Source: Bacteroides fragilis (lineage in GTDB: Bacteria > Pseudomonadota > Alphaproteobacteria > Rs-D84). From it: a DNA stretch of 57,699 nt. Location: contig CAVGNU010000006.1 of NCBI GenBank assembly GCA_963630775.1, forward strand, positions 1 through 57,699. Reading direction: 5' to 3'. Shown piece by piece: positions 6,001-12,000 of this stretch. The position numbers were made by a program. How positions within the stretch are numbered: the stretch's first letter is position 1; every line of letters starts with the position of its first letter.

Positions 6001-9000
6001 TCAACTGGCAGCATAGCCAAAATTTTGGCGGCAACCGGTGAAACGGTCAGCAATTTCACCAAATACTTTTCGAACAAGCAAAATGAATTATAAAATCTGT
6101 AAATAATACCGCGTGCGTTTGCGCGCGGTATTATGCTGTGATAACCATAGAATATATTTTTCAAAAACCCGTCTTTTATGCTGTTTTTAGGTCAAAGAAT
6201 CGTGTATAATGAGAATCGACAATCATATTCACGTATTTTTGTTATCTTTTTTATTAAAAAGGTATGGCGATGGCTACTATAAAAACCAGAGTGACCTTGT
6301 TGAAAGAACTGTTAGCGTTAAAAGAAGTCATAGATACAGGTCAAATCCAAGTTGCTGCAAACAAGAACGGCATAAAACATTCGAACATGTCCAAACTGAT
6401 TTCTGATTTGGAAATGCGTTTGAATGCAACACTGTTACAACGTACCCCCGCGGGCAGTTTGCCAACCAATGCAACACCGGAAATTTATTCGGCGATTGAA
6501 ACAATATGTAATGCATTGGATAAAATAGAACGGGTCGGCCCCGAAGAAGAACTGACCGGTTATATTTCCGTCATGATTGCCGAAGGATTGGTCGGCAGTT
6601 ATATATTGCGTGACTTGTCGCGATTCTATGCATTATACCCAAAAATTCGTTTGGATTTGCTGACCAATCGGCAACAGAACTTATCAAGCATAGAGGTTGC
6701 ACTGGTTGACTCAAAATCCAATTATCAAATCCCGGGGCGCACATTGTTCCGTATGCGGGCACCTGCATATTTCTTTACCTCTCAGGAATATTTGGATAAA
6801 CATGGCGCGCCGCGTGACATGGACGATATGCTGGAAAATTTTGACCTGTGCATGTACCAGTCATATTTGAATATGCCCGAATGTTCTTTTGTTGCAAAGC
6901 GTGCGCGTAAATTGAACACAACAACGGATTCTGTTGGATTGATATTCCGCCTGATACGTGATGGCGATGGTATGGGGTTGCTGCCAGCGTGGACGGCGCA
7001 ACAGCCGCCCAAACTGGTGCGTGTGCCGAACATAGATTTTGAATACGAACACCATATGATTGCTGCATGCAGTCCGAAACTGATTGATTCACCAAAAGTA
7101 CGGGCATTTATCAGATTCCTTGACGATTTTTGTCAAAGGCATAATATACCTGTGGAACGGGTGTGTTAAATCATGTTGGTTAAATCCGAATATTTGTCAC
7201 CGATTGGTAAATTGACATTGGTTGCGTCTGACAATACGCTGGTGGGGCTGTGGATTGCGGGGCAACGTCATCATGGTGATGTTACTGGTATTCCATTCGG
7301 CCACAGTACGGTATTGCAACGTGCATCGCGTTGGTTGGACATTTATTTTGCTGGTGGTCACTCAGCCGTTGATTTTGAATTGTCGCCCACGGGCACGGCG
7401 TTTCAACGTGTGGTATGGCGCGCGTTGCGCGAAATTCCATATGGCACAGTTGCATCATACGCTGATATCGCGCGCCATGTTGGATGCGCGTCCGCACGGG
7501 CGGTTGGTGGTGCGGTTGGTCGCAATCCGATTTCAATTATTATTCCATGCCATCGCGTTGTCGGCGCGCATGGCGCAATGATTGGTTATGCTGGCGGTAT
7601 TGACGCCAAGAAAAAATTATTGGGGCTGGAACAGGGTATTATTCCCGCCAAATAACAGATGCAAACATTCCATTTATAGTGTCACGCAAGTTCATATCAT
7701 CAAAAAACTGATTGCGCTGGGCGGGGGTTGTACCGTGTTCGTTATCTTCGAAATGTGGAATGTATTTTTGAATGGCGATTTTTTGTACGCCGCGATTGTG
7801 CAAATCGCGCGTTATTTCTATTAAATCCAGTTTTGAAACAAATCGCGGATCACATGTAATGCGAATCTCATAATCCTTGCCTGTCGCCTGCCATATCTCC
7901 AAACTGTGAATCATGCGGTCATGGGCGATATTTTGACCCGACAACGCACCATATTTATCACGCGTGGTTTTGTAATCCAAACCAATCCAGTCAACTGCAT
8001 CGGCGGCGCGTGCCAAATTTTCAGGGTAAAAACCGTTTGTGTGCAGGCCGATTTTGAAACCTAACTCACGAACGCGTCGCATATACTCAATCGCCGCATC
8101 CCCCTGCATCAATGCTTCGCCACCGGAAAAAACGACGGCTTCCAATTTGCCGATGCGACTACGTAACCAATCAAAAACTTTGTCTGGGTCGTATTCGCCA
8201 TCGCCAACATTCAACAAATGGGGATTTGAACAGTACACGCATCGCAACGGACACCCGCGCAGGAACAGCACAGCGGCCAATTTCCCAGGGTAATCAATCG
8301 TTGTAAACGATACCAAACCCCCAATTTGAATATCAGACATTTTATTATGCGGCCTTTTTTAATAATTCACAATGACGTGCACCGGTGGTCAAACTGTTGG
8401 CTTCTGTAAAGGTTTTTCTTTCACAAAATTCAGAATATTTACCAATGTTAAAATTAGACACTGGTCTGATAAAGCCCATAGAGCGTGAAAAAACTTCACA
8501 TGGTGTTCTCTGATTGTTGGCTGCTTGCATAATTTTCCTCCTTTTTTGTGCAATGCGTGTGTTTATTCGTGATTACATTCACAGTTCTGATTTGCGGCGG
8601 TTTCCGCGTCGCATTTCGGACAGAACTCATGACGTCCCGGCAAATACCCGTGTTTTGGACAAATCGAGAATGTCGGTGTCAATGTCATGTACGGAATCTT
8701 GTAGTTTTCAAAGATTGTACGTACAATTTTCTGGGCGGCTTCGCCACTGGATACAGGTTCGCCCATATACAGGTGCAACATCGTGCCACCGGTATATTTG
8801 CGCTGTAATTCTTCTTGGTGTTCCAATGCGACAAATGGGTCGTCGGTAAAATTCACCGGCAACTGTGTCGAATTTGTATAGTATGGCGCATCGTGCGTAC
8901 CGGCCGTGATGATGTCTGGGAAATTTTTCACATCGGTTTTGGCAAAGCGGTATGAACAACCCTCGGCAGGGGTGGCTTCCAAATTATACAGGTTGCCTGT

Positions 9001-12000
9001 TTGTTCTTGGAAATTTGCCAAGTTTTCACGAATGAAATCCATCACGTCCAGAACTAATTTTTTGCCCATCGGGGTTGCGATGTTTTCGCGATCGCCTGTA
9101 AAGTTGCGAACCATTTCGTTCGCACCATTTACACCAATGGTTGAAAAGTGATGTTCCCAATTACCCAGATAACGGCGTGTGAACGGATACAGTCCACGTT
9201 CCATATTCTTGGTAATAATCTTGCGCTTGATTTCCAGCGAATCACGCCCCATGTCCAACAAACGTTTCAGTTCACGGAACAGCCCGTCGCGATCGTCACG
9301 ATGTACATAGCCCAAACGCGCCAAATTGATTGTAACAACACCGATTGAACCGGTCTTTTCAGCCGACCCAAACAGCCCCCCACCACGCTTTAACAATTCA
9401 CGTACGTCCAAACGCAGGCGGCAACACATAGAGCGCACGTCGGTTGGATTCAGGTCGGAATTCAAGAAATTCTGGAAATTTGGAATCCCGTATTTTGCTG
9501 CTAAATCAAACAAAGGTTTGACATTTGGGTGTTCCCATGGGAAATCATCGGTAATGTTATATGTTGGAATTGGGAATGTAAATGGACGACCTAGTGCGTC
9601 ACCTTCGGTCATAACCTCCAAAAATGCTTTGTTGATTGTATCCATTTCCGCTTGCAGGTCGCCGTATGTAAAATCAACCTGTTTTTTACCGATAAATGGA
9701 TGCTGGTCACGCAAGTCCTTTGGACACGTCCAATCAAATGTAAAGTTGATAAACGGTGTTTGCGTGCCCCAACGACATGGCACAGCACAGTTAAATATCA
9801 ACGTCTGCATTGCGTTTTTGACATCGGCATATGTCAGGTTATCAATTCTGACATATGGTGCCAGATACGTATCCACAGACGAAAACGCCTGTGCGCCTGC
9901 AAATTCATTCTGTAATGTGCCCAAGAAATTCACCATATGCGAAATGGCGGTTGCCATATGCTTGGCCGGTTCGCATTGCAGATACCCTGGGACGCCATTG
10001 AACCCCTCATACAACAATTCTCGCAAGGACCAGCCCGCACAATAACCTGTCAGCCAGCCCAAATCGTGAATATGAATAGATGCGTTCTTGTGCGCTTCTG
10101 CAATTTCGCGTGGGTACAGGTTCAGCCAGTATTCCGCCGTTACGCGTTCACTGGTACGCAAAATCAACCCGCCAATGGAATATCCAACGTTTGCATTTTC
10201 CTTGATGCGCCAATTCGAACCACCAACATACCCCTCAATCACTTCTACAGCATCAACGTATGAATCGCGAATTTCGCTGCGTTTCTGGCGATATATAATA
10301 TATGATTCGGCGGTTTTGTACGCCTTGGCGTCCATCAATGCCTGAATCACGTGTTCTTGAATTTGTTCAACCGATGGTATGCGGTCTGTAAAGGTTGCGT
10401 CTAACTTGTTCAAAACGTTTTGGGTAATTGTCGCCACATCCGCATCAGATATTTCCCCTGTGACCGCAACGGCCTTTTTAATTGCATCAAATATCTTTTT
10501 GGAATCAAACGGGACAGTTTCGCCACCGCGCTTTTGTACCGCGACCAATTTAGTCGTCAGCGTTGGAATAACCTGAATTTTTGTTTCGTTTTTTGCATCA
10601 GACATTTTTCTGTCCCTTATTTTGTTAAAACACAACATCTAGTGGTTATTTTGTTTGTTTAATACCAATATATAGTTTTATAGGTTTTCTATCAACACGT
10701 AAAACAGAAATTTTTTTGTATTTTTTACTTTACTTTTCAAAAAGCGGGTTTTCCGTATGATTGCGCTGTAACCGATTCCCCGAATCGGAATACTAAATAT
10801 GTTTTTGTGTCAATATTTGTACCAAAATGCACCTAAAAACGATTCGCAAAACACAAAAAATACAAAATATAGACGCGTTTTGCAAAAATTGTATCTATAT
10901 GTTGACAAAGTGTGTGTTTTTCTGTGCGAAATTGTCCGAAATATTAAAATAGGTTGAGTTTCCCATCTAAAAATGATTTAGTGTAGGTATATCTGGGTAA
11001 TGGTTATCCAGATTTTTACTTAAAACTAACAAAAGAGCATAATCATTATGATGAAAAATGTGTATGAAATGCTGCGTGATGTTTGTTCCCAGAATAAAGA
11101 TCGTATTTTCTTTGTCAGACAGAATGAAACATATGCAGATCTGTTAAAGAAAGTAAAACAACGTGCAGTATTACTGGCACAACGTTTTGGTGTAAAAAAG
11201 GGCGACACGGTTGCAATTCTGTCGGGTAATACCCCAGAATTTATCAAATCGTATTTTGCCATTTTATCCCAGGGCGCACATGCATTGATGCTGGATACCG
11301 GCCTGTCACAGGCAGAACACCTGAACATGATGGCGCGCACCAATTGTAAATTGGCATTGGCGCAAAAATCGCACTTTGTTGATGGTGGCCCGACAATGTT
11401 CGATATCGAAACTATCGACGACACTGACGAAAACGATTTTGTTGCGGCGGACGTTGACTGTAACGATATTGCGATGATGTCTTTTACATCGGGTTCAACC
11501 GGCAATCCAAAGGTTGTTGGGCTGACGCATGATAACTTGTTATCATTGGCGCGGGGGGCATTGTTTTACGAACCGGTAATTCGCCCAGGGTACACATTCT
11601 ATGGATTCTTGCCACTGTATCATATATATGGTGTCGTCATCAATATTATCTCTCCTATTATTTTGCGAGGTCAATTATTGCTGCAACCAATATTGAACCC
11701 GCGCGAATTTTTGAAAGATTTCAAAGAATATAGACCAGAGGTTATTCCCGCCGTCCCACGCATATGGGAAGGATTCTATAAAAAGATTGTGGACAGCGCA
11801 CGTGAAAAACACATGTATACCGTTATGCGGATGGTGGTGTCATCGCGTCGCGTATTGCGCGCAATCGGATTGGGGTGCATCGTGGACAAGGTTACAAAGC
11901 CCGTTCATGCTATATTTGGTGGCAATACCAAGGTTCTGGTATCTGCGGGCGCAACACTGAAACCAACAATTCGCAAATTCTTTGAAAGTTTGGATTTTGT

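Follow-up and report, generated by a model that had tools for sequence, protein, structure and literature searches.

The stretch of DNA analyzed here, hereafter the window, comprises 57,699 nucleotides (nt) of contig CAVGNU010000006.1 (assembly GCA_963630775.1, positions 1 to 57,699), which is deposited under the name Bacteroides fragilis and carries the GTDB lineage Alphaproteobacteria, Rs-D84. It contains a locus for a class III ribonucleotide reductase (RNR) in which the glycyl-radical loop is missing from the nrdD product and is encoded by a short open reading frame (ORF) of its own. This ORF lies between nrdD and nrdG, the gene for the radical S-adenosylmethionine (SAM) activase. We consider it very likely that the locus specifies a working class III RNR composed of two polypeptides plus the activase, with the radical carried by a small, separate, and obligate subunit. 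A first-pass annotation of the window had proposed such a split, and comparison bears it out: the same break occurs in all 87 loci compared, and the short ORF is under purifying selection.

The boundary between the two ORFs divides the family profiles cleanly. In Pfam NRDD, the large ORF covers profile positions 1–531 of 562 (E = 3.8e-170) and the small ORF covers positions 530–562, the last 33 positions (E = 9.9e-5). The division in NCBIfam NF006126 is similar, with positions 4–653 of 684 assigned to the large ORF and 649–682 to the small one. The class III barrel scores 567.7 bits against PF13597 (cut-off 26.2) and 1031 bits against NF006126 (cut-off 548), and the adjacent activase scores 175 bits against TIGR02495 (NrdG2; cut-off 131). 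The best matches to class I and class II RNR profiles cover the ATP-cone only and reveal no class II catalytic chain. Alignment of the large ORF to NrdD chains in the Protein Data Bank (PDB) stops at their CPxC zinc-ribbon motif. Thus, coordinates and profiles agree with the first-pass description of an nrdD that ends after its zinc site and is followed, 32 nt downstream and in another frame, by an ORF of 61 amino acids (aa).

The large polypeptide retains the other hallmarks of the family. Its finger-loop cysteine pair lies in the sequence RSMCCRL (residues 391–397), in which R391, S392, M393, C394, C395, R396, and L397 are invariant among 13 diverse family members; this segment is predicted to supply the thiyl-radical cysteine. 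The C-terminal zinc ribbon, CPKH...CPKC (residues 649–665), is a predicted metal site whose C649, H652, C662, and C665 are invariant in an alignment of 13 diverse members. The chain then ends in ...FCPKCDAETAANQNCECNHE, followed by TAA, and contains no glycyl-radical loop (RxxG[YF]). That motif is intact in the 61-aa protein, which begins with MQAANNQRTPCEVFSRSMGFIRPVSNFNIGKYSEFCERK... and contains the loop SRSMG19F followed by a helix region of the form RPVxxFNxGKxxExxxR. The small ORF matches only the NRDD profiles of Pfam and NCBIfam. It gave no match to Pfam Gly_radical, and sequence searches of the PDB with the small-ORF profile and a fused fragment returned no informative match for the radical loop.

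Inspection of the ORF list and of the sequence between positions 8300 and 8720, read on the minus strand, defined the junctions. The open frame of nrdD reaches 10638, beyond the MSDAKNE start used here. A GGAGG Shine-Dalgarno (SD) sequence sits 6 nt ahead of the ATG of the small ORF, exactly as first annotated. The annotation had also placed the start of nrdG 5 nt after the small-ORF stop; the intervening gap is in fact 4 nt (TAAA), and nrdG begins at the fifth nucleotide. No terminator-like site was found between nrdD and the small ORF.

The arrangement is conserved throughout the relatives of the window. A protein search with the 61-aa query retrieved 355 homologues from uncultured gut Alphaproteobacteria that were 79–97% identical to it and all 55–92 aa in length. 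Three homologue neighborhoods contained the trio of nrdD (673–683 aa), mini-ORF, and nrdG (233 aa) amid flanking genes that otherwise differed. A scan of one genome per species turned up a relative of the large subunit in 302 genomes; the best 80 of these, which are 86–99% identical, are Candidatus Enterousia and related gut metagenome-assembled genomes of human, chicken, and ruminant origin. The window shows 99% identity to UBA6376. The split is present in 86 of 86 related loci, including one in the circular long-read genome OZ007020.1, and nrdG occupies the same position in every one. Near its end, the large ORF reads ...FCPKCDAE[IN]AANQ[ND], after which comes a variable tail; spacers measure 21–58 nt and always contain a GGAG-type SD. 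The frame of the small ORF relative to nrdD is 0, +1, or +2, depending on the species. This pattern of frames and spacers therefore indicates a noncoding intergenic spacer rather than a frameshift error or programmed recoding. The ratio of nonsynonymous to synonymous substitution (dN/dS) is 0.066 for the small ORF at a dS of ~1.5 (pairwise, 54-codon core) and 0.016 for the 150 codons that close the large ORF. The near-identical loci L001, L002, and L003 are distinguished solely by the A-run of the spacer, which contains 6, 8, or 9 A residues (about positions 3968–4000 in each); such a change in length, whether slippage or assembly noise, shifts the frame relation and leaves both ORFs intact.

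These observations bear on other explanations for the break. Its two ORFs, in different frames 32 nt apart and separated by a spacer whose A-runs vary among relatives, could in principle come from a sequencing or assembly error that introduced a frameshift or false stop into a single-ORF nrdD. The recurrence of the same break in 86 independent related loci, one of them in the long-read sequence OZ007020.1, as well as in cultured bacteria whose genomes are finished, reduces the probability of such an error almost to nothing, as do the stop codons and conserved SD within the spacers. It is hardly more credible that nrdD is dead and its C-terminal fragment unused. Enterousia genomes are reduced and gene decay is common in the lineage, yet the low dN/dS values of both ORFs were obtained at near-saturated synonymous divergence, the glycine motif is invariant, and the SD, the ATG, and the coupling to nrdG are conserved. 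We found no further disabling mutations in the relatives and no relaxed selection on the small ORF. Retention of the locus in genomes under 1 Mb also argues for function.

Translational recoding, by which read-through or frameshifting would yield one fused polypeptide, is very improbable as well. A short, A-rich spacer and the shared frame of the two ORFs in some loci would suit such a mechanism; against it, the frame relation takes all three values among species, spacer length varies nearly threefold, and a strong SD and ATG are always kept. Elsewhere, the two ORFs overlap by 4 nt, are separated by 142 nt, or, in phages, lie 0.3–2 kb apart. A better case, though still an unlikely one, can be made for the mini-protein as an optional spare part or regulator that is strictly GrcA-like, so that the large subunit would obtain its radical from another source or a complete NrdD would be encoded elsewhere. 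GrcA provides a precedent for pyruvate formate-lyase (PFL), and orphan copies of the mini-gene exist in phages. Yet the large subunit has no glycine loop of any kind, the mini-ORF is found between nrdD and nrdG in every split locus, and no other radical-bearing partner is encoded nearby.

The table lists the features of the locus, together with orphan copies of the mini-gene described below. Two palindromes upstream of nrdD resemble NrdR boxes, and the distal one overlaps the -10 hexamer of the best promoter-like site on the minus strand of the scanned region (TTGATA-17-TATATT, 10695–10667). A similar pair is found at about -38/-71 in 77 of the 87 loci, with 33-bp spacing in 72 of these; because the pair is so conserved, the operon is probably repressed by NrdR. 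At the other end of the locus, the 3' end of nrdG overlaps by 17 nt (7639–7655) the 3' end of a convergent 160-aa ORF (7173–7655), which by eye resembles a methylated-DNA-protein-cysteine methyltransferase (PCHRV motif).

Table. Features of the split nrdD locus in the window and of orphan mini-genes in phage contigs
Feature	Position	Strand	Remarks
nrdD, large subunit	8563–10605	-	680 aa from MSDAKNE; Pfam NRDD and ATP-cone, NCBIfam NF006126
Noncoding spacer, 32 nt	8531–8562	-	AAGGAGG inside
Small ORF, 61 aa, glycyl-radical loop	8345–8530	-	Frame differs from that of nrdD
nrdG, radical-SAM activase of NrdG2 type, 233 aa	7639–8340	-	TIGR02495; Pfam Radical_SAM, Fer4_12
Two NrdR-box-like palindromes	10631–10644 and 10664–10677		Upstream of nrdD; pattern search; 33 bp apart
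Orphan mini-proteins (about 60–80 aa)	L183:10001–10240; L102:4923–5147 (= L185:9062–9283); L186–L218		Phage contigs

Comparison with fused relatives places the break within a linker of variable length. The enzyme of Acidiphilium cryptum is fused (...CPRCAAEEPATIPRVCEVWTRVMGYHRPV...), as is that of Geoalkalibacter, which belongs to the same subfamily; Actinobacteria contributed fused fragments of this subfamily. Full-length fused proteins (33 sequences, 708–751 aa) are 56–60% identical to the joined proteins of the window, and the linker between their last zinc-ribbon cysteine and the C-E-[VI]-W motif spans 3 to about 45 residues. One protein with a long linker, P0405, resembles a read-through of a split pair of the Azospira type. 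Because the break falls in an unstructured linker of variable length, the split is tolerated and has apparently been made or undone more than once; simple stop and start changes can, judging from these sequences, break or rejoin the linker. In a rough neighbor-joining tree, which was thinly sampled and contained only two full-length fused sequences and a mis-trimmed Paracoccus sequence, the fused Acidiphilium enzyme falls among split enzymes. This placement suggests that fused and split forms are interleaved through repeated splitting or re-fusion. A Cys-x-Cys motif lies on the nrdD tail in the window (NCECNH, 8566–8583). In some species, the motif is on the tail of the large ORF and in others on the head of the small ORF (L004, L006, L071, and others), which implies that the break point moves within the linker.

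The first-pass annotation had noticed that the end of the large ORF (AANQN-CE) echoes the beginning of the small one (AANNQRTPCE), and proposed that a short duplication created the stop-SD-ATG junction. We set this origin aside as unsupported. In local alignments of 83 distinct loci, the DNA similarity between tail and head was no better than in composition-shuffled controls (mean z 0.56), and reached p<0.05 in 6% of loci. The echo thus carries no statistical weight, and fused relatives exhibit a variable linker instead.

Structure prediction is consistent with a small protein that folds only against its partner. We used AlphaFold2 to model the large and small proteins of the window as one end-to-end chain; the input alignment comprised fused relatives, large subunits from Enterousia, and small subunits. 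The joined model has a mean predicted local distance difference test (pLDDT) score of 77 and a predicted template-modeling (pTM) score of 0.72, and matches solved class III reductases (PDB entries 9d3x, 8p23, 4coi, and 1h7a) with TM-scores of 0.59–0.75, normalized by target length. Confidence drops below a pLDDT of 50 at the junction (residues 677–685). Beyond it, the model contains a β-hairpin (residues 692–697 and 700–703; pLDDT about 80–87) with G699, which corresponds to G19 of the small ORF, at its tip, and then short helices. Modeled alone, the small protein has a low pLDDT of 52 and forms no hairpin.

The split extends far beyond gut Alphaproteobacteria. A search of 1.84 billion cluster representatives with the small-ORF profile returned 2735 matches at E<=1e-3. 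The best 150 of these 2735 are very diverse in sequence, and all are 47–118 aa long. After three fragments were set aside, 146 of the remaining 147 cluster representatives begin with methionine. They share a ~37-residue core, R-x2-C-E-[VI]-[WYF]-[TS]-R-x-M-G-Y-x-R-P-V-x2-F-N-x-G-K-x2-E-x3-R-x2-F, whose key positions are 97–100% conserved; the cysteine eight residues ahead of the radical glycine is conserved in 97%. A tblastn search of plasmids and chromids located the mini-ORF in 161 records, including those of Ralstonia, Bradyrhizobium, Cupriavidus, and Paracoccus. On inspection, the split was confirmed for plasmid pHG1 of Cupriavidus necator H16, for Paracoccus denitrificans, Ralstonia solanacearum, Bradyrhizobium, Azospira, and Sulfuricurvum kujiense (a member of the Campylobacterota), and for a metagenomic locus whose large and small ORFs overlap by 4 nt; Undibacterium has it too. 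The split layout thus recurs widely among Proteobacteria, Campylobacterota, and phages, and the window represents one case out of a large group. On the IncP conjugative plasmid pAZI09 of Azospira sp. I09 (L093, 1–4995), nrdA and nrdB, which are class I genes, flank the inserted split trio, so that aerobic and anaerobic reductases share one cluster.

Plasmid pHG1 of Cupriavidus necator H16 encodes a 676-aa 'ribonucleoside triphosphate reductase', then, after a gap of 142 nt, a 66-aa 'nrdD', and then nrdG; the locus tags of the three are, in that order, H16_RS32680, RS32675, and RS32670. The H16 large ORF lacks the glycine loop and has a calculated mass of 76.2 kDa. Siedow et al. in 1999 reportedly gave an equal mass for NrdD. 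According to PMC2864759, which cites Siedow 1999, the nrdDG genes of pHG1 are needed for anaerobic, denitrifying growth of H16. The same article gives the corresponding genes of C. metallidurans as Rmet_5137 and Rmet_5139 and skips the intermediate gene. Mini-proteins of Undibacterium and Pseudoduganella are labeled 'anaerobic ribonucleoside-triphosphate reductase' in RefSeq. Since the RefSeq pipeline names many mini-ORFs 'nrdD' (some annotations say 'hypothetical' or omit the mini-ORF), the sequences already stand in the databases, seemingly unremarked. The first-pass annotation was aware of no characterization of the arrangement for NrdD, and our searches of the full-text literature likewise found no published description of a split NrdD or of an NrdD spare part. 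Curators of the RNR database or Siedow et al. (1999) may already have noted the split.

Among known systems, canonical NrdD/NrdG is the closest relative. The enzymes of phage T4, E. coli, Thermotoga maritima, Prevotella copri, and Streptococcus thermophilus have the same barrel, ATP-cone, finger-loop cysteines, zinc ribbon, glycine-loop motif, and adjacent radical-SAM activase. Every defining feature that we tested is present in the window, except that the glycine loop is on another chain: in the solved enzymes it follows the zinc ribbon in one polypeptide, whereas here a stop, a spacer, and a new start intervene. A functional RNR built from two separately translated fragments is not without parallel. 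In Aeromonas phage Aeh1, nrdA is said to be split by the homing endonuclease gene mobE into fragments that assemble functionally (Friedrich et al., 2007). That enzyme belongs to class I and is interrupted by an inserted endonuclease gene, whereas the present split consists of a 32-nt spacer and no mobile element.

The GrcA/YfiD proteins offer another comparison, which the first-pass annotation had already drawn. Phage T4 Y06I is an autonomous glycyl-radical spare part of this type for PFL. Like these proteins, the 61-aa product is a small standalone carrier of a radical glycine, here G19 within a conserved motif, and its ORF has a separate SD and ATG; the product would have to dock into a large partner and, by analogy, would be activated by the activase of the parent enzyme, and phage copies exist. 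The likeness goes no further. GrcA is homologous to the radical domain of PFL and backs up an enzyme that has its own radical domain, whereas the 61-aa protein is homologous to the C-terminus of NrdD and its neighboring NrdD has none. Because the large subunit lacks a radical domain of its own, the 61-aa protein would be an obligate subunit rather than a spare. According to a June 2026 review, small spare-part proteins are known among glycyl radical enzymes for the formate lyases alone. The split class II reductase NrdJa/NrdJb of Pseudomonas aeruginosa, described by Crona et al. 2015 (PMC4520616), also has a catalytic chain encoded by two adjacent genes, with a C-terminal functional module on the second polypeptide; it differs in that it is B12-dependent and the module is another one.

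Viral sequences contain both forms of the enzyme as well as mini-genes on their own. Among 80 IMG/VR loci of the same NrdD subfamily, 50 are fused and 14 are split with an adjacent small ORF; in at least three further loci (L121, L128, and L148), the small ORF lies 0.3–2 kb downstream of the large one. The orphan P0121, which is the third-best match to the Enterousia profile, has Sak recombinase, YqaJ exonuclease, HNH, and endolysin-like genes as neighbors, and neither NrdD nor NrdG was found around it within 12.7 kb. Another orphan copy, of 69–74 aa, is encoded on a 39-kb phage contig (L102/L185) with late transcriptional activator, endolysin, and DksA-like genes and has relatives on 34 viral contigs. 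Examination of 35 viral loci, up to 10 kb on each side, revealed a match to the large NrdD subunit in one and to NrdG in none. Orphan mini-genes were seen only in IMG/VR and in one Logan contig, and a tblastn search with the phage-type mini-protein against the deposited phage genomes of INPHARED gave no match. Because the mini-gene occurs in phage contigs that have neither the large subunit nor the activase close by, its product would act in trans, and judging from gene content the orphans may represent an auxiliary gene that gives a radical subunit to the host enzyme.

Two other features of the viral loci deserve mention. In L098 (1497–4219), an 846-aa ORF is overlapped at its 3' end by the mini-ORF P0123 (72 aa, SRSMGF) and has an HNH endonuclease gene beside it; the 846-aa ORF has no Pfam or PHROG match, and comparison by hhalign revealed no similarity to NrdD. 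Several viral NrdD ORFs of ~750–840 aa (L125–L127, L131, L134, L135, L140–L142, L145, and L179) have a C-terminal extension that ends in ...APTL[LV]V... and by eye is thioredoxin/glutaredoxin-like.

From these findings, we infer how the two proteins would dock, become activated, and transfer the radical. The 680-aa NrdD-large would contribute the ATP-cone, the catalytic barrel, the loop with the thiyl-radical cysteine, and the zinc ribbon. The 61-aa protein, which has a separate ribosome-binding site for its translation, would bring a β-hairpin whose tip residue, G19, bears the stable radical. NrdG would remove a hydrogen from Gly19 with the use of S-adenosylmethionine, and the hairpin would enter the barrel of the large subunit noncovalently at the site usually occupied by the fused domain. 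During catalysis, the radical would then move between Gly19 and the finger-loop cysteine. A likely benefit is that the part destroyed by oxygen or other radical quenchers would be a cheap 7-kDa protein, which could be renewed while the 76-kDa enzyme is kept. NrdD has been described as undergoing cleavage at its radical site (PMC12288474).

Several considerations weigh against this two-subunit model. Support for the synthesis of the 61-aa protein, for its binding to NrdD-large, and for its radical is indirect; for radical formation and nucleoside triphosphate reduction, it consists of the reported need of C. necator H16 for the homologous pHG1 locus in anaerobic growth. Genomes with a split locus may also encode a complete NrdD elsewhere. 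The AlphaFold model represents a single concatenated chain predicted from a shallow alignment, with a finger loop (residues 392–418) of low confidence. Enterousia, as described, ferment anaerobically, lack a respiratory chain, and have reduced genomes, which makes oxygen damage a less persuasive rationale in their case than in that of denitrifiers; in this lineage, the split layout may be no more than an inheritance.

The phage orphans fit a subunit that is diffusible and exchangeable. It is tempting to speculate that the mini-protein is a free 'radical cartridge' that is charged by NrdG off the enzyme, fits any compatible NrdD-large, and is discarded when quenched, and that phages exploit it by carrying the cartridge gene only. 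We put this idea forward tentatively, as a possibility somewhat less probable than its negation. If it is true, phages would boost or restore the anaerobic supply of deoxynucleoside triphosphates in their hosts. The mini-protein would then be the RNR counterpart of GrcA and Y06I and would offer a natural system in which to learn how a radical loop that is buried gains access to its activase.

Glycyl radical enzymes are thought to bury the radical glycine within the chain that forms the active site, and how the loop exits to meet the activase is unsettled. With the loop on a 7-kDa protein of its own, activation, docking, and turnover can each be examined individually. For annotation, the findings mean that a downstream mini-ORF should be looked for before an nrdD of ~680 aa with no glycine motif is labeled as truncated or as a pseudogene. 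The architecture has been overlooked in well-known bacteria such as Cupriavidus necator, Ralstonia solanacearum, and Paracoccus denitrificans, as well as in gut Alphaproteobacteria with genomes under 1 Mb, and the phage orphans point to a possible new kind of auxiliary gene that acts on the nucleotide supply of the host.

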